DNA of 39,185 nucleotides, taken from the NCBI GenBank assembly GCA_965612865.1, contig CBFDTJ010000005.1, positions 1 through 39,185 on the forward strand, in the 5' to 3' direction. Source of the stretch: an uncultured bacterium (GTDB lineage: Bacteria; Caldisericota; Caldisericia; B22-G15). Below the pieces are notes generated by a model. It searched no databases. It was not told the origin of the DNA and was given only the letters and a program-made list of their open reading frames with translations. Position numbers and translations under genes: made by a program. Below are positions 26,667-38,597 of this stretch, piece after piece. The number at the start of each line of letters is the position of its first letter. Position 1 is the first letter of the stretch.

Positions 26667-29600
26667 TTAGTACCAGAGGAATGTGATGGTTACAGTTCTT
26701 GTGAGAGGATCCCAATCAACCTGAGAACCGAATGCCTCTGCGATAAATCTGATTGGAACAAAGGTTCTTCCATTTACGATCTCTGGAGCAACATCAAGAG
26801 CGAAGACCTCACCGTCAACTATTGCTGTTGGGTTACCAACCTGAAGACCAATGGTATGTTTTGTGGATGCAAGGTCAAGAGAAATGTTGATTCCTCTTGT
26901 CTCTGGGATCCACTCAACAGTTGCACCAAAGGCTTCTGCAATGAGACGGAGAGGTACCATTGTTCTTCCGTTCTTGATGTATGGAGCTGCTTCATATGGT
27001 TCACCGAACTCACCGTTGACTCTTGCCACTGGGTTACCAATCTGGAGTTCAACTACTGTCTTCTTGTAGATGACTACTGTGATTTCCTTGGTGGTCTCAT
27101 TTCCAACTGCATCTGTTGCGGTGACTGTTACGATGTTCTCACCATACTCAAGCTCAAGCTCTGCTTCCCAGTAATCGTGAGCAACAGTGGCTTCCACATC
27201 GTTAACCATTACCTTTGCACCTTCCTCTACCTTACCGGAGAGTTTCACGGTGGTTGAGGTAAGTGGTGAAGGTAATGCATCAACTGTGAGTTCTGGTGGA
27301 ACTGTGTCAAGAACAACAACTACTGTCTTTTCAGTCTTGTTTCCAGATGGATCCTTTGCTACTACTGTAATCTCATTTTCACCCTCAGTGAGTGTTACTT
27401 CTGCACTGAACTTGCCATCTGCTCCAACTTCTGCCTCGACTCCATTAACCTTAACCATTACTGTGCCTGAGTTATCTGTTGCTGTACCTGTAATTGTCAC
27501 TGTTGGCTCGTTGGTTGGAGATGCTGGCTTGTCAACTGTGAGTTCTGGTGGAATGGTGTCTGCACCAACAGAGACTACCATCTTGCCAGAGATGTATCCA
27601 TCTTTGGCTGCTGTGATAAGAATATCACCAGCTTCTGTTGGCTTCACTGAGAACTTAACCATTCCATCAGCATCTGTTGTTCCCACAAGATCAACACCAG
27701 CACCGTAGAGTGTTACCTCTGCACCTGCAACTGGGAAGTTAGGTCCTGCCTCTACTACCTTAACGGTAACCTCTGTCTCAACTCCAACAGTGAGGTCACC
27801 CTTCAAGGAGAGACCAAGTCCCTTTGCTGCATCGAAGTATGGAAGTGGCCATGAAGCGCTTCCAACTGGAGGAGCAATTCTCTGAGCTTCTCTCATGTCT
27901 GCAACTTCGTGTCCCTTTGGTGTGATAAGGAATGAACCATTGAATAGTGAAGCACCCCAACCAGTAAATGCTGCTAACCAGTCAGTTATGAAGCTTGCTG
28001 CTCCAAACTCAATCATTGCATTATCTGGTGCTCTGTCATCGTATGTCCAGTAGAGGACTTCACCAACAGAGTTGAACTTATACCACCATGGCTCGAGGTC
28101 GTTTCTCATCCAGAACATATCAGAACCCCATCTTGCAACAACTGCAAGGTAGGCAACTCTTGTACCAACTCCTCTTGGTAAGAAGTTCAAGGTTGTCTCT
28201 GCTACACCATCATCGTTGTGTGTGAAGGTTCCATATGCCCATGTCTCAACGTTTCCTACAAGCTGTACCTGTACACCTTCTCTTACTGCAAGATCTCTGT
28301 CGTCTGCTGGAAGTGCATGTACAACAAGGTGGTTCTCAAGTCCATATGTTAGATCATAGAAGTTCTCGTTGAATATCTCTTTTCCAAGCTCCTCATGGGT
28401 TTCACCATTAAGCACCTCAAACTTCATGAAGTCAATGTCAACCTGTCTATTTGCATTTCCATACCAGTCAAGGAAGAATCCCCAATCTGCACCATTTCCA
28501 GTTCCACTCCATGCAGCACCAAATCTGTACCTTGGATAGGAGAGCATGTAAGACCAACCTGCAACGTCACCAAGATCGTATACTCCTGCTCCTGTATCAA
28601 ATATGGTTACATATGGGTTCTTTCCAACAATTCCTGAAAGTGCAGAGATGTCATCTGTCTCAACATAGAAGGTTGCCTGTCCATTCTCATCAAGTGTGAA
28701 TGTATCGTCAACATCTATTACACCATCAGTATTTATATCTGGATACATATTTCCGATTGCCCATGGACCAATATCGTACTGAGAGTTGTAGATTCCCTGC
28801 TGACCTTCAAATCCATCGGCTGTAGGATTGCCCCAGTAGAAGAGATAGTGTGTCCAATCGTGTACACCATAAACTTTACCTTCTCCAGCTCCACCTTCGT
28901 AGATGTTGTCATAGGTAGATGCGTATGCTCCAAACGGTATCCACTCTGTGAAGGAAACATCTCCATCACCATCAAAGTCTGCACCGACCCAGTTGAAGTA
29001 GTGTGGTGTGTATCCCATGTATGGGAGGAATCCTGCATATACACCCTCTGTTGGAGGCTCACACTCACCAACTGGACCTGGAGATGCAATTGGCTTACCT
29101 TCGCAGTCCTTTACAGTTACTGTCACTTCATAGATTCTGATGTCACCTGCAGTCATAACAAAGTCTGGATCACCTGGTACAGTAAATACTGTTCCAGTCT
29201 CATCCTCAACATTTGTTATCTCATAAGAGACATCTGGAAGTTCAACCTTAACTGTGGCAACACCATAGTGCTTTCTATCTGGACTGTAAACATATACCTC
29301 AAACTCACCCTTATCATTGGCAACGAATCCAGTGAACTTGTAGATACCATCGCCCATCTCTGTGAAGTCTGGATTGATTGGCTCAAGGGAATTACCAATT
29401 GCATCTACATCTGCAACACCGTCACCATTCCAGTCGTATGGTCCACCTACATACATGTCATTTGCTGCATACAGATTGAGAGCATGTGCAAGTCCTGTAT
29501 CTGGATCAACAACTATTGCATCATTGTGCAGGTCTGTTCTTACCCAGTAGTACTCAGGAAGTGGTACTGGTACAACATCATCAAAGAGTCCGTTCCAGAT

Positions 29601-32600
29601 CATAACATCATTTACTGTTCCTCCGCCGATACCAACGGAGAGGTCAACTGGATTACCATCAGCGTCTGTTACGATGAATGTAAGTGGCTTACCATCAGGC
29701 TGTGCCTCAGGAAGTACACCTGCAGTTAAGCATGGCTCAGTGTCAACATTCCAGTCCTCAACACCAACAACTGGAATATCTACCTGACCGGCAAGGTAAA
29801 CTTCCCATGGCTCCCAGCCCATACCTGGTGAAAGGGTTGCTTGTCTTGGGTTAACTCCATCATCACCATAGGTGTATGCAGTAATTCTTACTGGAATCTC
29901 TTCGTCGGTGAGAAGTACACTGTTTGAATCAAAGTCAAATCCAATCTCATCAATCTGAGCACCGTTTGCTGCGGTAAGATCAAATAGATACTTACCATCG
30001 TTGATGTGGTTGGTCATTGCAGAGTAGGTTACAAATCCACCCTGCCATGTCTGTGTTGCAATATCAAAGGTTCCAACAATCTCTGTTTCCTTGTCTGCAA
30101 AGGAAATTACACCATCACCGTTCCAGTCGTATGCATTGTAAACTGGACCTGCGTTGAATGCTAATCCTTCAAGTATACCCAATGGCTGACCACCATACTT
30201 TGGTGTCTGACCTGTAATCCAGGCATCACCAACACCATATCTTAACCCTGTTACTGGATCTTCAACACCTCTATCCTGCCAGACAAACATAATTACCTGG
30301 TTTGCAAGTGGCTGGTTGGTTGTTATGGTTGTCTCACCCCAAGGTGAGTTATCTTTATCGTATGGATATACCTTTGCTGTGATGTCAAGAGTTGTATCCT
30401 TGTCCACTGTTATGCTTTCTGGGAATCCAGTGAGCTCTACTGCATGAACTGGAACTCCCTCTGGATTGTCTGAGCAGGATGTGCACCACTTGAAGGAATT
30501 GGTGTTTCCAAGATAATCAGTGATGATTATCTTGATCATTCCTGGTCCAGTTGGAATAATACCTGTAATTACCTGCACATCGTCAAAGGTAAATGGCCAT
30601 CCGTCGTCGTATGCATATCCATCATATTCGAACATACCGTTAGTGATTACTATATCGCCAGATGTATCATATCCTCTTGGTAGATACTCTGTTCCAAGAT
30701 ACTCGTATGGTCCATCTGTAAGCGCTGGATAAGCTGGTGCAACATTGTCTTCAAGAAGGTATGGTCTCCAGACAAATACTGGCTGAGCATTTGGATCTGC
30801 CTTTTCACCAACTATCTCAATGGATGCAAGGGTTCCTGCATCAAAGGAGAGGTGATTTCCTTCAGCATCCTTTGCAATGAATCTAATTGTGTAGTTGGTT
30901 AATGGATAGTACTCAGTTCCAAGTTTCCAGAAGAGGTTTCTGAACTGAGCATGTCTTGAGTTAAATCCATAGAGAAGCCCAACTACAGTCTGAGCATCAA
31001 CTGGACCTGAAAGTGGAAGTCCCTGATAATTATTACCCCAGCCAGAACCTTCAAGTAGGGTCTGACCACCTGGGTATGATCTAAGTTCCATGTTAAGGTT
31101 CTGAAGAACCCATGGATACTGATCAGAGCTCCATCCATATGGAGGATATGGATTTATCCAGTCAGGTCCTGCCCATGCTCTAAGTCCTTCATCAACAATC
31201 TCAAATTCTGCAAAGTTTACATCATAAACCTTTGTTACTGTTACATTTACTGTTCCAAGGTAGTCAATAAGGTCAAAGTCTGGATCATCAAGGTAGAGTG
31301 GTGGCTGTGGTCCGACAAAGTTGTAAATTACATTTGTTGTAAATACAGTAAACTCAACCTCTGCACATCCACTCTTTGGAACCTTGACAAGTGCATAGAT
31401 CATTCCAGATGTATCAATATCTGATGGAAGTGCATATCCATAAAGTGTGTATGCCATGAATCCGTCTGTAAGGACATCGCCAGGGCTTGGAATTCCATCA
31501 AGGTCGTTATCAATAAGGCTGTATGGTCCTCTATCATATACTGGCTGAGTTGTTACTTCTCCTGGCTCAAATATCTGGTCTCCATCATCATTCCATAACC
31601 AGACATAAATGGAGAGATCAGAGTTATATTGAATAATATAATCATCAGCCCCATCATTTCCTGCATTTATCCACTCGATACCATTACCATGTGCATTTAC
31701 ATAACCCCAGAGATTATCTGCTGTTGTATCATAAATAGCTCCACTTGGATCGTCAACATCCTCTGGATTGTCAGCATTGAAGAGAGCAAATCCAATATTT
31801 GGCCATCTCTGATCAAGTGGTGAGATGCACTCCTTGTTTGGATCAAGAATTAAGTCTTCTGGATTGATGGGCCATTCCTCTTCATACCAGCAATCATAGT
31901 TTCCAAACTTGTATGATTCATCATCAATCTCATAATAGTTCTCAAATGGAACTACATCAACAATGTTTTCTCCTGTTGCGTCAAGTTCAGGAACATAGGT
32001 ATACCCATAATATCCATCTTCTGGTCCAAGGGCACCGCAGATCTCTGCAAATGCTCTCACTCTGAACATTGGAGGAAGGTGAGTTACCATATCTGGATAT
32101 AGGCTTCCTCTCCATCCAGTAACATTGTGTGTCTTCTCGCTTCTGTGATTGTTGTCAAGGGTGAAGTACTTAATTACCTCATAGTATGGATCTCCCTGTG
32201 TATCATATCCTGGAAGCTCAAGAACTACATGAACTGTTGCTCCAGCTGGAAGTGTGCAATCATCAGGAAGGCTTACCCACACTGTGTAGGTCTGCTCAAC
32301 CTTGAGTTCGTCAACAGTTACTCCAGCCTCTGTCTCAATGGTTACATCAAGATCCATTGTTCCAGGAAGAACTGTGATATCCATTCCTCTGAAGTCACCA
32401 TAAACCATGGTGATTCCAGAAACTGGGTTCTCATCAACCCATGAATTCTGTGGTCCGTAGAATGTAACCATCTGAAGAACAACAGCACCAACTGTACCTG
32501 CAGCATAGACAGTTGCAAGTGGTGCACCAAGATTTACATCACCACTTGAAACAGAGCCTACTGCCACAAACCAACCTGCAGCTGATGGCTCAAGGATAAC

Positions 32601-33650
32601 GTCTCCAGCAGTGAATGAAGTGCTAGCATCTGTATCATAAACATAGACAATGTTTCCAGAAAGAGAATCAATTATGTAACCAAGCATGTTTGCCATAGTT
32701 GTTACAAGACCATCGTTATCAACTGCACCTACAAACTCTTCACCAGTGTTAAGTGGAACATAGTCATCAGAAAGGTTATCTGTAACAGTTGCAGTAACTG
32801 CAGCTGTATCGTTGTTATCTACTCCATTATCTCTGAATATTTCAAGATCAAGGAATTCTCTGTTTGTGAGCTCAATGTCAAAGAATGTTGTTGTAGAAAC
32901 ATTGTATGCAGTACTTCTTGCAAGTTCGTGTGTGATTGGTGCAAAATCGCTACCTGTTCCTGGTCCAAGAACTGCTGTTGCTACAGGATCATTTACAAGT
33001 GGATTGCCCCAATCCACTGGCTCAACATCAGACTCTACAGAGATATCATAAACTACACTATTCCCGCAGCAGGATGCAGTAAGAACCTCAAAGAATAGGA
33101 AAAGATCACCAGGAGTGTATCCTCCACTATAATCCATATCTGCAAGACCAATCTGGAATGTTCTTCCAGCTGCTGGTCCATAGTCAAGGGTTACATAATC
33201 ACCAACAGCGAATGGTCCCATTGTGTTTGCCCAGGCAGTTGAACCTGGAACATCAAAGTGTGTGTCTGGGTCAATGTATATATGCTCCTCTTCGTCTACT
33301 ACCACATAGTAGTGGTCCTTGAGTTCAGAGAGACTTCCCTCAGAGACTACTGTGGCATAGAAATCTGTTGCGAGATCTGGTTCCACAGTAGTGAGAGGAT
33401 CGGCATCACCATCCCAATCTGCTGTTTCATCCCAGTAGAAACTGAAGTATCTCTGAACTGTTACTGCTGAATCTACAAGTTCCCATGTGTGTGGAGGTGC
33501 TGTTACTGCTTGAACATCCTGCCATGCATTGGCTATCATTGTTGCAGGAGTCTTGTCATAAGCGGCTGCTGTTGGTGTTCCTGTAAATCTGAATGGGACA
33601 AAGGAAATTGCAAGGAGCACTACTAAAAATAAAGCTAAATACTTACGCAT
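26667..33650 (-). CDS. Giant acidic surface/S-layer-like protein (~2327 aa) with C-terminal Ig-like domains and copper amine oxidase N-terminal (stalk) domain
   Basis: Start at ATG 33650 (SD AAGGAGGT, signal peptide MRKYLALFLVVLLAIS...AAA); many DxDxDG-like loops; two DT.PPELTV Ig repeats; stalk motifs AP.IKNGRTMVPLR.IAEAFGA.V.W and AP.IVNGRTFVPIRFIAEAFG..V.W; codon use visibly different from neighbours (TTC/AAC/TAC/GAC frequent). Confidence 0.85.
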   Translation of the reverse strand: MRKYLALFLVVLLAISFVPFRFTGTPTAAAYDKTPATMIANAWQDVQAVTAPPHTWELVDSAVTVQRYFSFYWDETADWDGDADPLTTVEPDLATDFYATVVSEGSLSELKDHYYVVVDEEEHIYIDPDTHFDVPGSTAWANTMGPFAVGDYVTLDYGPAAGRTFQIGLADMDYSGGYTPGDLFLFFEVLTASCCGNSVVYDISVESDVEPVDWGNPLVNDPVATAVLGPGTGSDFAPITHELARSTAYNVSTTTFFDIELTNREFLDLEIFRDNGVDNNDTAAVTATVTDNLSDDYVPLNTGEEFVGAVDNDGLVTTMANMLGYIIDSLSGNIVYVYDTDASTSFTAGDVILEPSAAGWFVAVGSVSSGDVNLGAPLATVYAAGTVGAVVLQMVTFYGPQNSWVDENPVSGITMVYGDFRGMDITVLPGTMDLDVTIETEAGVTVDELKVEQTYTVWVSLPDDCTLPAGATVHVVLELPGYDTQGDPYYEVIKYFTLDNNHRSEKTHNVTGWRGSLYPDMVTHLPPMFRVRAFAEICGALGPEDGYYGYTYVPELDATGENIVDVVPFENYYEIDDESYKFGNYDCWYEEEWPINPEDLILDPNKECISPLDQRWPNIGFALFNADNPEDVDDPSGAIYDTTADNLWGYVNAHGNGIEWINAGNDGADDYIIQYNSDLSIYVWLWNDDGDQIFEPGEVTTQPVYDRGPYSLIDNDLDGIPSPGDVLTDGFMAYTLYGYALPSDIDTSGMIYALVKVPKSGCAEVEFTVFTTNVIYNFVGPQPPLYLDDPDFDLIDYLGTVNVTVTKVYDVNFAEFEIVDEGLRAWAGPDWINPYPPYGWSSDQYPWVLQNLNMELRSYPGGQTLLEGSGWGNNYQGLPLSGPVDAQTVVGLLYGFNSRHAQFRNLFWKLGTEYYPLTNYTIRFIAKDAEGNHLSFDAGTLASIEIVGEKADPNAQPVFVWRPYLLEDNVAPAYPALTDGPYEYLGTEYLPRGYDTSGDIVITNGMFEYDGYAYDDGWPFTFDDVQVITGIIPTGPGMIKIIITDYLGNTNSFKWCTSCSDNPEGVPVHAVELTGFPESITVDKDTTLDITAKVYPYDKDNSPWGETTITTNQPLANQVIMFVWQDRGVEDPVTGLRYGVGDAWITGQTPKYGGQPLGILEGLAFNAGPVYNAYDWNGDGVISFADKETEIVGTFDIATQTWQGGFVTYSAMTNHINDGKYLFDLTAANGAQIDEIGFDFDSNSVLLTDEEIPVRITAYTYGDDGVNPRQATLSPGMGWEPWEVYLAGQVDIPVVGVEDWNVDTEPCLTAGVLPEAQPDGKPLTFIVTDADGNPVDLSVGIGGGTVNDVMIWNGLFDDVVPVPLPEYYWVRTDLHNDAIVVDPDTGLAHALNLYAANDMYVGGPYDWNGDGVADVDAIGNSLEPINPDFTEMGDGIYKFTGFVANDKGEFEVYVYSPDRKHYGVATVKVELPDVSYEITNVEDETGTVFTVPGDPDFVMTAGDIRIYEVTVTVKDCEGKPIASPGPVGECEPPTEGVYAGFLPYMGYTPHYFNWVGADFDGDGDVSFTEWIPFGAYASTYDNIYEGGAGEGKVYGVHDWTHYLFYWGNPTADGFEGQQGIYNSQYDIGPWAIGNMYPDINTDGVIDVDDTFTLDENGQATFYVETDDISALSGIVGKNPYVTIFDTGAGVYDLGDVAGWSYMLSYPRYRFGAAWSGTGNGADWGFFLDWYGNANRQVDIDFMKFEVLNGETHEELGKEIFNENFYDLTYGLENHLVVHALPADDRDLAVREGVQVQLVGNVETWAYGTFTHNDDGVAETTLNFLPRGVGTRVAYLAVVARWGSDMFWMRNDLEPWWYKFNSVGEVLYWTYDDRAPDNAMIEFGAASFITDWLAAFTGWGASLFNGSFLITPKGHEVADMREAQRIAPPVGSASWPLPYFDAAKGLGLSLKGDLTVGVETEVTVKVVEAGPNFPVAGAEVTLYGAGVDLVGTTDADGMVKFSVKPTEAGDILITAAKDGYISGKMVVSVGADTIPPELTVDKPASPTNEPTVTITGTATDNSGTVMVKVNGVEAEVGADGKFSAEVTLTEGENEITVVAKDPSGNKTEKTVVVVLDTVPPELTVDALPSPLTSTTVKLSGKVEEGAKVMVNDVEATVAHDYWEAELELEYGENIVTVTATDAVGNETTKEITVVIYKKTVVELQIGNPVARVNGEFGEPYEAAPYIKNGRTMVPLRLIAEAFGATVEWIPETRGINISLDLASTKHTIGLQVGNPTAIVDGEVFALDVAPEIVNGRTFVPIRFIAEAFGSQVDWDPLTRTVTITFLWY

Positions 33651-33659
33651 ACGCGTAAC

Positions 33660-33886
33660 CTCCTTTTTGTTTAGAATTTTGAGGAATCCGTCCTCATGCG
33701 GGGTCAGGGGCAAACTTTCTGGTTTCTCTCCTTCCCTGACCTTTAAGGAAAGAAACCTTCCTTTACTCATACTCTACCTTCTCACCTCCTTTCATTTTGT
33801 TTTGAGTTTGGGTTGGGCGCCTGCCTACCCTCTCCAGTTCCCTGGCGGTTTGGCAGTAACACAGCCCAAACCTCAAACTCCACCCA
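33660..33886 (-). promoter_or_regulatory. Long structured 5' UTR of the surface-protein gene
   Basis: 77-nt hairpin 33804-33880 with GGAA tetraloop; extra SD 33782-33792; stems at 33745-33763, 33702-33741 and 33681-33695. Confidence 0.65.
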
Positions 33887-34073: not shown

Positions 34074-34110
34074 TGTGTAAAAAGTAAACATGCTGTGTAA
34101 AATTTACACA
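34074..34110. promoter_or_regulatory. Tandem TGT-N11-ACA sites (candidate enhancer-binding-protein UAS)
   Basis: TGTGTAAAAAGTAAACA (34074-34090) and perfect inverted repeat TGTGTAAA-A-TTTACACA (34094-34110), with a 20-bp period, about 200 bp upstream of the sigma54 start. Confidence 0.6.
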
Positions 34111-35021
34111 CCGTGTGGAAATACCACCTCAAATTCTTTCAGTATTTCAATAATCTCGTCTTTAATCTTCCTCTTTGCCTCCTCAGTGTTTCCTCCAATA
34201 TGTGGAGTAAAAATGCAGTTATCAAATTCAAAGAGTTTACTTTCTTCGGGAGGCTCAGTTTCAAAAACATCGAGAGCACACCCGGAGATTTTACCACTTT
34301 TTAACCCACAGACAAGAGCCTCTTCGTCAACAACCTCTCCCCGAGATGTATTTATAAGAAAAACTCCTCTTCTCATTTTATCCACGGCTCTCTTATTTAT
34401 AAGATGGTAGGTATCTTCTGTCAGAGGAACATGAATGGAGATAAAGTGAGAGATGGAGAGAATTTCATCAAAAGAAATATACTTTATAAAAGAAACACCT
34501 TTATTAAATGGATCAAACCCAAAAACATTCATGCCCAGAAATCTTGCCATAAGAGCAACGCTTCTTCCAATGTTTCCCGTTCCAATAATTCCAAGGTTTT
34601 TTCCTTTTAGTTCAAATCCAATGAATTTATCCTTATCCCATTTTCCAGATCTTGTTGAATTTGAAAGAGGCAGTATATTTCTTGAAAGTGCTATCATGAA
34701 ACCAATTACAAGTTCTGAAACTGAGTTAATACTTGCATTTTTTGTATTTCTCACCTCTATTCCCCTCTCCCTCGCAAATTCACAGTCTATATTATCCAGT
34801 CCGATTCCTGCTCTTATTATGAGTTTCAGGTTTTTTGCCCTTTGAAGTACCTCTCTATTTAATCTGGTTCTACTCCTTACAATAATTACATCCTTATCCT
34901 CTATCTCTTCCTCAAGTCTATTTCTTTCAATACCTGGCCTGTAAAAAACCATATACTTTCTGGAAAGAATCTCAACTAAAGACTCATGAACAACATCTGT
35001 AATTAGAATCCGAAAGGCCAT
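34104..35021 (-). CDS. D-2-hydroxyacid / D-3-phosphoglycerate dehydrogenase (short form, no ACT domain)
   Basis: IVRSRT, RAGIGLDNID, GFELKGK.LGIIGTGNIG, INTSRG, LDVFETEPP and TPHIGGNT.EA. Confidence 0.85.
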   Translation of the reverse strand: MAFRILITDVVHESLVEILSRKYMVFYRPGIERNRLEEEIEDKDVIIVRSRTRLNREVLQRAKNLKLIIRAGIGLDNIDCEFARERGIEVRNTKNASINSVSELVIGFMIALSRNILPLSNSTRSGKWDKDKFIGFELKGKNLGIIGTGNIGRSVALMARFLGMNVFGFDPFNKGVSFIKYISFDEILSISHFISIHVPLTEDTYHLINKRAVDKMRRGVFLINTSRGEVVDEEALVCGLKSGKISGCALDVFETEPPEESKLFEFDNCIFTPHIGGNTEEAKRKIKDEIIEILKEFEVVFPHGV

Positions 35022-35023
35022 AA

Positions 35024-36361
35024 CTAAACCTCCGGTAGCTCCTTTAATGCTTTTTCTATCTCCTCTTCTGGATACTCGTAATCTGTAAGTTTTCCTTTAA
35101 GATATGCATCGTACGCTGAGAGGTCAAAATGACCATGACCTGAAAAGTTAAAGACTATAACATCTCCTCTTTTTGCCTTTTTTGCCTCTTCAATAACGGC
35201 TTTTATTGCATGATTCGTCTCTGGAGCAGGAATGATTCCTTCTGTTTTTGCAAAAAGAATTCCTGCCTCAAATACTTCCTTCTGATAAAAGGATGTTGCT
35301 TCTATTATGTTGTTTTTTAAAAGTAAACTGAGAATTGGCGCATCTCCATGGTATCTTAAGCCTCCTGCGTGAATTGATGGTGGAACGAAGGAACTTCCAA
35401 GGGTGTACATCTTAAACAGAGGGGTAACTCTTCCAGTATCACCATAATCATATGTGTATTTTCCTTTTGTAAAGGTTGGACAGGCTTTTGGCTCCACTGC
35501 AACAAATCTTATATTTTTATCATCAAGCCTGTCAGGAACAAAGGGAAGAATAAAACCGCCGAAGTTACTGCCACCTCCAACACATCCTATCATAACCGTC
35601 GGTGTAAGCCCTTCCTTTTCAAGTTGCTTCTTTGTTTCAAGTCCTATAATCGTCTGATGCAGGAGTACATGGTTTGCCACACTACCGATGGCATATTTAG
35701 TGTCTTTATTCTTTGCCGCCTCTTCAACTGCCTCAGAAATTGCTATTCCAAGACTTCCAGAGGTATCTGGAAACCTCTCTCTTATCATCTTCCCGACTTC
35801 AGTCATATCTGTTGGGGATGGGAAACATTCTGCACCCCAGGACTCCATTAAAAGTCTTCTGTAAGGTTTCTGTTCATAACTTACCTTTACCATGTAAACC
35901 CTTACATTCAATCCAAATTGAGCACCTGCAAAGGAAAGAGCGGAACCCCACTGACCTGCACCAGTTTCAGTAACAAGTCTCTCTGTTCCCTCAATGCTTG
36001 CAAAATAAGCCTGTGCTACTGCTGTGTTTGGTTTGTGGGAGCCTGGAGGAGAGACTGACTCATTTTTGTAGAAAATTTTTGCCTCTGTGCCGATTGCTTT
36101 CTCAAGGTTCTCTGCTCTTACAAGGGGAGTTGGTCTCCACATTGAATACACCCTTAAAACCTCTTCCGGAATATCAATCAATCTTTTCTCTGAAAACTCC
36201 TGTTCAACACAGGATTCTGGAAAAACAACTTCCAGCTCTTCTGGTTTCACAGGTTTAAGAGTTTGTGGATTAAGGGGAGGGGGAACACTTTCTGGTAAAT
36301 CTGGCAAGACATTGTACCAGCCTCTCGGAAGCTCACTTTCGTTTAATAAAATTTTTTTCAT
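35024..36361 (-). CDS. trpB2: Tryptophan synthase beta chain 2 (TrpB2)
   Basis: [55 protein letters not shown] and SGHGHFDL; no adjacent trpA. Confidence 0.93.
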
Positions 36362-36384
36362 AAAGCACCTCCTTTTGGTTTATA

Positions 36385-36417
36385 AAAATAAAAAAGGAGC
36401 CTCTCCCGAGGCTCCTT
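36385..36417 (-). terminator. Attenuator terminator upstream of trpB2
   Basis: AAGGAGCCTC-GGGA-GAGGCTCCTT followed by TTTTATTTTT; lies between the promoter and the trpB2 SD. Confidence 0.9.
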
Positions 36418-36451
36418 GATGGTATTCTTGTGGGGTTTTATGGTTCTGGCT

Positions 36452-36547
36452 TTAGGTGAATACAAAGGCAGCCCCGGAAGAGAGTCTCTCTTCAGAGCGC
36501 CACCACCAGAACCAATTAAGTGAATATACAGAAGTCAAATCTTTCAC
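36452..36547 (-). CDS. Trp leader peptide (31 aa, MKDLTSVYSLNWFWWWRSEERLSSGAAFVFT)
   Basis: GTG start, TGG-TTC-TGG-TGG-TGG at 36514-36500, TAA at 36454-36452; directly upstream of the terminator and trpB2. Confidence 0.82.
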   Translation of the reverse strand: MKDLTSVYSLNWFWWWRSEERLSSGAAFVFT

Positions 36548-36557
36548 ATTTTGAATT

Positions 36558-36585
36558 AGGTTAACACAAAATTTATTTTTGTCAA
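36558..36585 (-). promoter_or_regulatory. sigma70 promoter for the trp leader-trpB2 transcript
   Basis: Minus strand TTGACA-N16-TAACCT with an extended -10 TG. Confidence 0.7.
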
Positions 36586-36641
36586 TATTTTGATACAATT
36601 TAACTAATCAATTGGTCTTTGGACTTAAAAATGGAGGAAAC

Positions 36642-37079
36642 ATGGAGAAAGCTAAAACGGGAGATACTGTAAGGGTGGAATACACGGGAAAATTTGAGGA
36701 TGGTCAAATATTTGATTCAAACAAAGGAAAAGAACTTCTTGAATTTACCCTTGGAGAGGGAAAGATTATACCAGGGTTTGAAAAGGCAGTTATTGGAATG
36801 GAGGTGGATGAAGAAAAAACTGTTAAGATTCCACCTAAAGATGGGTATGGAGAGTATATTGAAGGACTTGTGGCTGAAGTAGAAAAGGAGAGGTTTCCAG
36901 AAAACTTAAGTCTTGAAGTGGGAAGGCAACTTGTTATTCCACAGGAAAATGGCGGTCAGTTGATAGTAACCATAACAAAGGTTACAGACTCAAAAGTGAC
37001 ACTGGATGCAAACCACCCTCTGGCTGGAAAAACTCTTATATTTGATATAAAACTTAAGGAGATAGTTAAAAAAAGTTAG
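36642..37079 (+). CDS. slyD: SlyD/SlpA-like FKBP peptidyl-prolyl isomerase (no His-rich tail)
   Basis: GD.V.VEYTG..EDG..FDS, IIPGFE, IPP..GYG and LDANHPLAGKTL.F; ATG 36642 after GGAGGA. Confidence 0.88.
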   Translation: MEKAKTGDTVRVEYTGKFEDGQIFDSNKGKELLEFTLGEGKIIPGFEKAVIGMEVDEEKTVKIPPKDGYGEYIEGLVAEVEKERFPENLSLEVGRQLVIPQENGGQLIVTITKVTDSKVTLDANHPLAGKTLIFDIKLKEIVKKS

Positions 37080-37158
37080 TAAAGAAAATTATTTAAGGCA
37101 TTTTCCTTCTAAAGAAGGTTTTATAGTGTGATTTAATAAATAGAATAGTTAAAAACTA

Positions 37159-37186: not shown

Positions 37187-37258
37187 TTTATTTGCTACTT
37201 TATTTTTGCAATCTAATTTTATTATTTTTTATATATTCTCTCTATGGAGGGAGGTGAA

Positions 37259-37696
37259 ATGGAGACAAAAGGAAGACACTTGATCCTCGAGATCTCTGGA
37301 TGCGATCCAGAAGTGTTAAATGACATTGAGAAAGTGAGAAACATTCTCACAGAAGCAGCAAACAGGGCTAACGCCGAAGTCAGGGAGACGGCTTTTCACC
37401 GATTTTATCCCCAGGGCGTTAGTGGAGTGGTTGTTATATCGGAATCCCATCTCTCTGTGCACACCTGGCCAGAATATGGGTATGCAGCCCTTGACATCTA
37501 CACATGCGGAGAAGATACCGACCCATGGAAAGCGCTTAAATTTGCAGCAGAAGAGTTTAAAGCCAGGGAGGTTTGCCTCACCTCCATTTCACGGGGTGAG
37601 AGGGAGAATGGGAGATTTGTACATAAAATAACAAGAAACTTAACGGGGAATCTTGTGGAGGAAATAGGTGAAGAAGCGGTGGATGTGGTTTCATGA
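37259..37696 (+). CDS. speD: S-adenosylmethionine decarboxylase proenzyme
   Basis: GRHL, F.PQGVSGVVVISESHLSVHTWPE (E-S cleavage site) and AALDIYTCG; ATG 37259 after GGAGGTG. Confidence 0.92.
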   Translation: METKGRHLILEISGCDPEVLNDIEKVRNILTEAANRANAEVRETAFHRFYPQGVSGVVVISESHLSVHTWPEYGYAALDIYTCGEDTDPWKALKFAAEEFKAREVCLTSISRGERENGRFVHKITRNLTGNLVEEIGEEAVDVVS

Positions 37697-38597
37697 TAGG
37701 TTTGAACCCACTGAGGTTCACCTCCATGGGTTCTCAGACTATATAGCTGGAAAGGAGACGGAGTATCAGAAGATAGAGATACTCCAGTCTCCTTTCTTTG
37801 GTAAGATGCTTGTAATTGATGGAGATGTTCAATCCTCTGAAAGGGATGAATATATATATCATGAATCTTTAGTTCATCCGGCTCTAACAATCCTAAAAAA
37901 GCCGGAAAATGTACTTATACTTGGCGGAGGAGAGGGCGCCACTTTAAGAGAGATTTTAAAACACAAAACTATTAAAAGGGTAACAATGGTTGACATTGAC
38001 AGAGAGAGCATTGAATTTGCTAAAAAACATCTTAAGGAGTGGCATAAAGGAGCATTTGAGTCAGAAAAGCTAAATCTTATCCTGGGAGATGCCCTTAAAA
38101 TAGTTAATGAACTTAAAGAGGGTAGTTTTGATGCAATAATATCTGATGTTACAGAACCCTTTGAGGGAGGTCCATCTTACAGGCTTTTCACAAGAGAATT
38201 TTTTGAAAAATTAAAAAGGCTACTTAAAAAAGACGGGGTATTCTCACTTCAGGCATCGATGCTAAGAAATGTTACATACGAACTTCACAGAGCAATACAC
38301 TGGACATTAAAGGAGGTTTTTCACCTTGTCTTCTCCTACTACTCCTATGTCCCTTCCTTTGACACAACCTGGGGTTTTTGTCTTGCAAGTGATGAATTAA
38401 ATCCAGAGGATTTCTCCATAGAGGAGATAGACAGAAGAATAGGTGAGAGAATAGAGGGAGAATTAAGGTTCTACGATGGTGAAACACACAAGAAGTTATT
38501 TCTTTTACCGAAGGATATAAGAGAGATTTTAAAGAAAAAAACAAATATAATAGAAGAAGATAAGCCCTTTGTTTTACCCAAGAAGAATAGTCTCTAA
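37668..38597 (+). CDS. speE: Polyamine aminopropyltransferase (spermidine synthase)
   Basis: T.YQ, LVIDGDVQSSERDEYIYHESLVHP, VLILGGGEGATLRE, MVDID and FDAIISDVTEP. Confidence 0.93.
   Translation: MKKRWMWFHDRFEPTEVHLHGFSDYIAGKETEYQKIEILQSPFFGKMLVIDGDVQSSERDEYIYHESLVHPALTILKKPENVLILGGGEGATLREILKHKTIKRVTMVDIDRESIEFAKKHLKEWHKGAFESEKLNLILGDALKIVNELKEGSFDAIISDVTEPFEGGPSYRLFTREFFEKLKRLLKKDGVFSLQASMLRNVTYELHRAIHWTLKEVFHLVFSYYSYVPSFDTTWGFCLASDELNPEDFSIEEIDRRIGERIEGELRFYDGETHKKLFLLPKDIREILKKKTNIIEEDKPFVLPKKNSL

Follow-up and report, generated by a model that had tools for sequence, protein, structure and literature searches.

A 39,185-nt stretch (positions 1-39,185) of contig CBFDTJ010000005.1 of an uncultured Caldisericia bacterium (GTDB lineage B22-G15; assembly GCA_965612865.1), which we call the window, carries a stand-alone trpB2 gene on its minus strand. 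The gene encodes a TrpB-like pyridoxal phosphate enzyme, whose TrpB2 profile scores are 702.1 bits for NF009057 (cut-off 366) and 654.2 bits for TIGR01415 (cut-off 518.85). The canonical trpB model TIGR00263 gave 164.3 bits, under its cut-off of 392.45. On the same strand, between trpB2 and a divergent gene for an FKBP-type isomerase, lies a leader that we read as a probable ribosome-mediated transcription attenuator responding to tryptophan (Trp). Directly behind trpB2 is a gene for a phosphoglycerate dehydrogenase-like (PGDH-like) enzyme, which is probably part of the same transcript and so under the same control. The features are listed in Table 1.

Table 1. Positions of the trpB2 operon, the elements of its leader, and the neighbouring or related genes discussed in the text.
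Feature	Position	Strand	Remarks
FKBP-type isomerase gene	36612-37079	+	Divergent from the leader
Predicted −35 box, TTGACA	36580..36585	−	Read directly; same place in relatives
Predicted −10 box, TAACCT (weak)	36558..36563	−	TGT before the hexamer; 16-nt spacer
Leader open reading frame (ORF)	36452..36547	−	GTG start, TAA stop; no Shine-Dalgarno (SD) sequence; probably leaderless
Regulatory Trp codons, UGG-UUC-UGG-UGG-UGG	36500..36514	−	Codons 12-16 of the leader ORF
Segment 1, 5′ strand of the anti-antiterminator	36487..36514	−	Holds the Trp codons; minimum free energy (MFE) and centroid structures of the free RNA
Segment 2	36465..36486	−	Partner of segment 1 or, in the antiterminator, of the terminator 5′ arm and loop
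GCCAGAACCA, distal 3′ strand	36441..36450	−	Pairs with the first Trp codons and so closes the 1:2 hairpin at its foot; outer helix examined in the window only
Intrinsic terminator hairpin (segments 3 and 4)	36394..36417	−	10 bp, loop GGGA
Terminator U-run	36384..36393	−	Read directly and from the terminator scan
trpB2, stand-alone TrpB-like enzyme	35024..36361	−	ATG at 36361; SD AAGGAGG at 36374-36368
PGDH-like 2-hydroxyacid dehydrogenase gene	34104..35021	−	305 codons; begins 2 nt past the trpB2 stop
DUF1015 gene of the sister family	L002:3014-4333; L003:2866-4122	+	Same position in L172-L177, L179, and L180

The leader ORF comprises 31 codons between a GTG (36547-36545) and a TAA (36454-36452) and encodes the peptide MKDLTSVYSLNWFWWWRSEERLSSGAAFVFT, which includes W-F-W-W-W-R. 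Trp is specified by codons 12, 14, 15, and 16 (36514-36500), which gives four Trp within five codons. A 34-nt spacer separates the stop codon from the stem of the intrinsic terminator, AAGGAGCCUC-GGGA-GAGGCUCCUU, with a folding energy of −18.2 kcal/mol. In the antiterminator, CCGGGGCUGCCUU (36477-36465) pairs with AAGGAGCCUCGG. In the anti-antiterminator, UGGUUCUGGU (36514-36505) pairs with GCCAGAACCA (36450-36441), and this outer helix encloses additional pairs between 36500-36487 and 36483-36467. The original prediction had described a leader ORF, a terminator, an antiterminator, and an anti-antiterminator on this strand, and all four are present where it placed them. Its antiterminator pairing was also found, as part of a longer helix of about 20 pairs that starts at 36486. 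The leader therefore contains a Trp-codon ORF, a terminator, an antiterminator exclusive with it, and an anti-antiterminator overlapping the Trp codons, which are the structural features of a leader-peptide attenuator.

We inspected how often such a Trp cluster arises in the 1.42-Mb genome. Across its six frames there are 154 clusters with at least three Trp in five codons and five clusters with at least four. Three Trp clusters lie outside open frames of at least 100 codons, and the trpB2 leader alone among them reaches four of five. The two others were rejected as leaders and attributed to chance, one lying before a tRNA array and one inside a gene.

Folding of the free leader RNA gave −61.5 kcal/mol against a shuffle mean of −45.75 (z = −3.71), and none of 200 shuffles was as low. 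The structure consists of one long hairpin plus the terminator, in which 36514-36487 (the Trp codons and the next 14 nt) pairs with 36483-36441. The original prediction had proposed folding the leader with and without the Trp codons constrained to be unpaired. We used a ribosome footprint of −12 to +15 around the A-site codon. When the ribosome occupied Trp14, Trp15, or Trp16, the window leader switched in its MFE structure to the antiterminator of about 20 pairs (36486-36465 with the whole terminator region) and kept zero terminator pairs, but with the ribosome on Trp12 the terminator was retained. The terminator was also intact with the ribosome on the leader stop codon.

The comparison of the leader drew on 84 species genomes from the class and 93 from the phylum; the genome of the window is G000 (87.6% complete). 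Twelve of the 84 class genomes have trpB2, namely G000 alone among the nine of its own family (f1) and 11 of the 26 in a sister family. When contigs were scanned with the TrpB2 protein, the best matches, L092 (100%) and L093 (99%), were from the window's own population, and the next best was 69% identical. All 12 trpB2 loci in which the start of the gene is covered share the same leader architecture; in L174 the contig end truncates the leader on its 5′ side. The shared parts are TTGACA, a spacer of 16-17 nt, TAnnnT, a start codon 7-10 nt further on, and a strong SD before trpB2. TTGACA is found in 10 of the 11 leaders whose promoter region is covered, L179 having TTGACT. The leader ORFs of the relatives start with ATG, have 29-36 codons, and encode W-x-W-W or W-x-W-W-W. 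Past the leader stop, at a distance of 22-34 nt, 12 of 12 leaders have a terminator hairpin of 7-12 bp and its U-run. The terminators were judged one sequence at a time, since their two types (loop GGAA or GGGA versus GAAA) misalign the 3′ arm in MAFFT. The original prediction expected the Trp codons to be conserved upstream of trpB2 orthologues, and TGGTGG is indeed invariant in all 12 class leaders.

The complementarity of segment 2 is conserved as well. Its core, YUUCCGGGG, is complementary both to a CCUCGGAGA-like segment 1 just past the Trp codons and to a CCUCGGAAA-like terminator 5′ arm and loop. The duplex of segments 2 and 3 has −12.0 to −21.4 kcal/mol, a strength matched by no more than 13 of 500 segment-2 shuffles in any of the 12 leaders; the window has the −21.4 kcal/mol duplex, with none of 500 shuffles as strong. 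In alignment A3, the ten core pairs of helix 2:3 are paired in 91.7% of 120 cells, versus 35-68% in controls with the partner shifted by 1-3 columns. Four of the ten pairs change on both sides, and the covariation score is reached by 3 of 500 shuffles. For helix 1:2 the six core pairs are paired in 90.3% of 72 cells across the 12 leaders versus 29-67% when slid, three of the six pairs change on both sides, and the score is reached by 29 of 500 shuffles. MAFFT shifted L002 by one column in A3, which explains several of the unpaired cells; inspected by eye, L002 has 11 pairs. At pair 47/114, G-C has become A-U in L003 and L179, with the altered base still forming a G-U pair in the terminator. 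The terminator loop of L176 is GGGAA (GGAAA in others) and is matched by CCCCC in segment 2 (CUUCC in others), a change that only the antiterminator explains.

These comparisons bear on whether the ORF might be a small gene in its own right, encoding a Trp-rich micropeptide and ending in a terminator of its own, with no regulation of trpB2. Conservation of W-x-W-W in the peptide, followed by Cys, Arg, or Tyr, would fit such a gene. Past the Trp codons, however, it is the RNA motif that is conserved and not the reading phase or the peptide. The core motif of segment 2, CUUCCGGGG, stands in codon phase 2 in eight leaders, in phase 3 in three, and in phase 1 in one, and depending on the leader it encodes SSG, FQG, LQG, PRG, or FPR. 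These three phases and differing peptides indicate that the RNA rather than the peptide has been maintained. The covarying complementarity of segment 2 to the terminator 5′ arm and loop also speaks against a separate gene, as does the gap between the terminator and trpB2, which is only about 22 nt and contains no separate promoter-like site. A covariance model (R1) built from A3 found one element per genome in 13 of the 84 class genomes and nothing further among the 93 phylum genomes, and 12 of the 13 elements stand before trpB2. We regard the micropeptide as the least probable of the explanations considered here, and a very remote one.

The thirteenth element is an orphan leader in G055 (C23; L186:1466-1632), with the ORF MEKIKVSSFKNFFSWMWWCLEDIKSSGVYLDTA and a terminator, and with a convergent 257-codon gene where trpB2 would be expected. 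It looks like a remnant of trpB2 loss. The window leader most resembles those of L003 and L179, which share WFWWWR or WAWWWR and a GGAGCC-type terminator. Together with the patchy distribution of trpB2, this likeness hints at a joint transfer of the gene and its leader from one family to another.

The start of the leader ORF required closer inspection. Contigs X2 and X5, from sequencing runs of two other studies, have T instead of C at plus-strand position 36547, which turns the GTG into an in-frame ATG and removes an out-of-frame ATG. The leader of X5 differs otherwise only by Y8C and a 1-nt deletion at 36436, in the unstructured spacer. Contigs X7 and X12 leave most of the leader uncovered. 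The relatives have ATG-AAA or ATG-GAA at the start position, with ATG in 10 of 10 complete relative leaders. The position of the start codon is fixed by the ATG of X2 and X5 and by that of the relatives at the same place. The window GTG begins ten bases past the −10 hexamer, and in 11 of 11 leaders the distance from the −10 box is 7-10 nt, which implies a 5′ untranslated region of about 0-4 nt. Among 110 promoter-like sites in G000, 11 are followed, 6-11 nt past the −10 box, by the first ATG to begin an ORF of 60 codons or more; the bins flanking this range hold one each, and a second peak is at 30-41 nt. This distribution suggests that G000 regularly produces leaderless mRNAs, and the mRNA of the trpB2 leader is probably leaderless too. 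A leaderless start would explain why no SD precedes the leader ORF in the window, an absence that the original prediction had already noted.

The missing SD could also be taken as a sign that translation plays no part and that the UGG-rich stretch is the binding site in a TRAP-like, T-box-like, or riboswitch mechanism run by a protein or an RNA, the ORF being incidental. Such a switch is very unlikely on the remaining evidence. In the 11 complete leaders of the 12, the reading frame of the Trp codons opens with a start codon and closes with a stop ahead of the terminator, and the truncated L174 keeps the frame and the stop. GTG and ATG are the only variants seen at the start codon. Segment 2 is separated from the last Trp codon by 19-23 nt, a spacing at which a ribosome stalled on the Trp codons would mask segment 1 and leave segment 2 free. 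An Rfam search of positions 35900-37100 gave a best E of 0.31 and 13 weak matches at chance level, none of them a leader family. RF00513 (Trp_leader) had no match in this region even at E up to 10, and the T-box covariance model RF00230 was unmatched in the window leader, in line with the original prediction that no T-box is present. Its observation that there is no TRAP repeat tract holds too, although (G/U)AG repeats were not formally scanned for. The TRAP family PF02081 was found in none of five genomes, with the B. subtilis control matched.

Taken together, we estimate at roughly 0.85 the probability that the leader is a ribosome-mediated attenuator which senses tRNA-Trp charging and controls the operon of trpB2 and the PGDH-like gene. 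The trpL-type logic assigned to it in the original prediction is supported by the constrained folding, the architecture common to 12 of 12 loci, the helix statistics, and the GTG/ATG polymorphism. For the following scheme we infer the transcription start site, the leaderless initiation, the timing of the events, and the response to Trp. Transcription would start a few bases before the leader start codon, giving an mRNA that is leaderless or nearly so. When Trp is scarce, the ribosome would stall on codons 14-16 and cover segment 1. The free segment 2 could then pair with the terminator 5′ arm and loop, no terminator would form, and the polymerase would read into trpB2. When Trp is plentiful, the ribosome would pass segment 2 and reach the stop codon, leaving segment 2 either occupied or recaptured by segment 1. 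In that case the terminator would form and transcription would end at about 36384-36390. If the leader is not translated at all, helix 1:2 and the terminator would both form and the operon would be off. Relative to the original account, the probable leaderless start and the probable second governed gene (35021-34104) are additions.

Several observations weigh against this attenuator. The leader stop lies 10 nt past segment 2, and a ribosome at the stop would mask just the 3′ end of that segment. Covariation among the 12 sequences, all of them kin, is moderate. In equilibrium folding of the 12 full leaders with a ribosome on the last Trp codon, the antiterminator replaced the terminator in only three (the window, L003, and L174), and the MFE structure kept the terminator in the other nine. 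In transcripts ending at the terminator loop with a stalled ribosome, segment 3 was paired upstream in 12 of 12, but its paired-base count rose from the free to the stalled state in five of 12 only. Because equilibrium folding switches in so few leaders, the decision is presumably kinetic, as in known attenuators. The remaining difficulties concern the start of the window copy, which reads AAUGUGAAAG, an out-of-frame ATG followed by TGA (36544-36549, minus strand) that overlaps the in-frame GTG. Its −10 box, TAACCT, matches TATAAT at three of six positions and was not listed by the promoter scan; the relatives have TAAAAT, TATATT, TATACT, TATTAT, TAGTAT, or TAAACT.

These features of the start raise the possibility that the family is real and the window copy is decayed or terminates constitutively, the GTG and the poor −10 box leaving the leader untranslated and trpB2 silent or driven otherwise. 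The GTG in place of the ATG of the complete relative leaders fits this explanation, as does the restriction of trpB2 to one of nine f1 genomes, and the orphan in G055 shows that the locus can decay. We nevertheless consider a decayed copy improbable. The trpB2 gene is intact and scores far above the family cut-offs. All helices are intact, and none of the other 11 leaders has a predicted switch as clean as that of the window. GTG is an ordinary start codon, and the ATG of the sister populations at the same codon represents variation between two functional starts.

We next considered what the attenuator would regulate. Members of the TrpA, TrpC, and TrpE families were found in none of five genomes (G000, G001, G002, G010, which is 99% complete, and G030, 98% complete), with 14 of 14 controls positive; it counts against our argument that G000 is 87.6% complete, so genes missing there alone are not proof of absence. 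In the 84 class genomes, TrpA was above its cut-off once, as a fragment in G068. For tryptophanase (PF01212), G000 gave only partial and uninformative matches, at about 29 bits. Since TrpA, TrpC, and TrpE were not found, TrpB2 is the only Trp-forming enzyme detected. It would make Trp from scavenged indole in an organism in which the rest of the pathway was not found. This agrees with published work on the enzyme family. A Bacteroides TrpB2 homologue is reported to rescue an E. coli trpA mutant through cross-fed indole (PMC11535334), and the same paper cites a KM for indole below 1 μM for the Thermotoga enzyme. Indole salvage by TrpB2 in Thermococcus is cited in PMC11085991, and PMC2700814 applies the term indole-scavenging to the protein. 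The salvage role was proposed from enzymology and genetics (Hettwer and Sterner, 2002; Hiyama, 2014; cited in PMC11535334 and PMC11085991). The original prediction took the leader as regulatory evidence that TrpB2 serves Trp supply. This view is strengthened by the missing TrpA, TrpC, and TrpE families, by the single TrpA in the class, and by the T-box leaders that precede trpB2 elsewhere.

We examined 150 trpB2 loci from other phyla, each with at least 150 nt of upstream sequence. Within the upstream 400 nt, a Trp-codon cluster occurs in the sense frames at 20 of the 150 loci and in the antisense frames at none, the background being 0.025 per 400 nt. On inspection, L092 (the twin of the window), L002, L003, L060, L075, L087, L091, L149, L157, and L169 are leader-like, with a short ORF followed by a terminator. 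L158 shares the L157 peptide and was not separately inspected. Among five loci with GWWAW, we rejected L040, L119, and L122 as leaders because their cluster lies upstream of a promoter-like site, over the start of a divergent frame; L123 and L125, which have the same peptide, and the GC-rich L064, L117, and L154 were not inspected. A second, unrelated family of Trp leader ORFs stands before trpB2 in Bacteroidales and Chlorobiota metagenome-assembled genomes (L060, L075, L087, and L091), with peptides such as MKTVSRAYWWWWRFHENGG and MNYSRTYWWWWRIKICAVTGMSE and a shared terminator core, CAUGUUGGUUAC.AGCAUG. L149 and L157 represent further types of Trp leader. Nine Trp-leader loci searched against Rfam at the gathering score matched no leader family, RF00513 included.

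Other trpB2 genes probably carry a different sensor for the same signal. The T-box core motif was present at 20 of the 150 loci in a motif scan, and RF00230 confirmed it in 10 of 11 candidates tested. These loci (L013, L015-L017, L019, L020, L022, L113, L114, L144, and others) are labelled Actinomycetota, Anaerolineales, Dehalococcoidales, and others. Each of 22 T-box candidates out of 22 has one GAAUGGR 138-202 nt upstream of the T-box core, which we read as a putative Trp (UGG) specifier. In four of five sampled T-box loci, no plus-strand ORF of at least 80 codons was found within 300 nt after trpB2. Like the window leader, the putative Trp T-box leaders (RF00230; L013-L020, L113, L114, L144, and others) have trpB2 as their target, would respond to tRNA-Trp charging, and end in a terminator. 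Their sensor is a tRNA-binding RNA, whereas that of the window is predicted to be a translated ORF, and no T-box is present.

A close classical parallel is the enterobacterial trpL leader (RF00513). Both have a short ORF with clustered Trp codons, exclusive helices 1:2, 2:3, and 3:4, and an intrinsic terminator before the structural gene, and in both the position of the ribosome would decide the outcome. The window leader differs in having no Rfam match, four Trp in five codons, no SD, and a start 7-10 nt past the −10 box. Its ORF extends across segment 2 and ends 34 nt ahead of the terminator stem. It would also control a stand-alone trpB2 in a genome where the rest of the pathway was not found, whereas trpL controls the trpEDCBA operon. 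The trp attenuators of Corynebacterium and Streptomyces, as described in PMC1262725, likewise have UGG runs, U-tract terminators, and a complementary triple shared by the antiterminator and the terminator, the triple of the window being CCUCGGA / UCCGGGG / CCUCGGAA. They belong to another phylum, have no sequence relation to the window leader, and target a biosynthetic operon (PMC1262725). The 'trpB2A' of that paper denotes a second trpB copy adjoining trpA. Leaderless polycysteine short ORFs that act as attenuators in mycobacteria (bioRxiv 10.1101/834739) resemble the window leader in having an ORF at or near the 5′ end of the transcript, no SD, and a single amino acid sensed. These sense Cys, whereas the window leader is predicted to sense Trp, and its probable leaderless start is proposed from promoter spacing.

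The mechanism is a classical one, but it is well supported that the leader belongs to a new, unannotated family, with 13 members, a covariance model, and no Rfam match. Our search of the open-access literature, with subscription journals outside its scope, turned up no account of a leader peptide preceding a TrpB2-family gene. According to PMC2965389, leader-peptide attenuators had been shown only in Proteobacteria and Actinobacteria, and that paper added Firmicutes. The family described here would extend them to an uncultured bacterial lineage with small genomes. It would also provide a clean example of a regulatory ORF that is probably leaderless. By tying a stand-alone TrpB2 to Trp starvation, the leader would offer regulatory evidence for the indole-salvage role.

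The gene that shares the operon with trpB2 differs between the lineages. The PGDH-like protein scored 309.5 bits with TIGR01327, under the cut-off of 454, over profile positions 1-297 of 525. The gene is found at this place only in the organism of the window (L001, L092, and L093). For the sister family, the gene next after trpB2 encodes a DUF1015 protein in 10 of 10 loci with downstream sequence, under the same Trp leader. A tblastn search found no DUF1015 homologue in G000, and searches of PDB and NCBIfam gave no sequence match for DUF1015. For a structural model of the L003 protein, of modest quality (mean pLDDT 65.9), nine of nine PDB matches with E of 0.001 or less were free serine kinases or their homologues, namely SerK (5x0b) with related entries, SbnI, and 1vk1. 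The match is weak, with low TM-scores of 0.23-0.30 by query and 0.34-0.48 by target. DUF1015 proteins ('SerBK') have been proposed as serine kinases on other grounds (preprint 10.1101/2024.10.14.618325), and the use of O-phospho-L-serine by TrpB2 enzymes is a finding cited in PMC11917138. The PGDH-like and DUF1015 partners therefore both point to a supply of phosphoserine. SerC was not found in G000 with TIGR01364 (39.9 bits, cut-off 443.6), and without this match a path from the PGDH-like gene to O-phosphoserine is not established there.

A tentative extension, to which we give somewhat less than even odds, is that the operon forms a self-contained salvage module induced by starvation. It would pair TrpB2 with an enzyme supplying O-phosphoserine, take its indole from neighbours, and be the only Trp route in the 12 trpB2 genomes of a candidate phylum otherwise devoid of the Trp pathway. 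If so, the shared Trp leader would be regulatory evidence in vivo both for O-phosphoserine as the physiological co-substrate of TrpB2 and for DUF1015 as a serine kinase. The two partner genes would link indole salvage to phosphoserine metabolism and make the in vivo substrate of TrpB2 and the role of DUF1015 testable.

Two other loci in the window deserve mention. Directly downstream of the operon, a 2367-codon ORF (26667-33770, minus strand) encodes a giant secreted or surface protein with a signal-anchor-like stretch at the N-terminus and repeated modules at the C-terminus. On the plus strand, genes for adenosylmethionine decarboxylase and spermidine synthase (37244-38597) overlap by 29 nt (37668-37696), an arrangement that suggests a translationally coupled polyamine pair.

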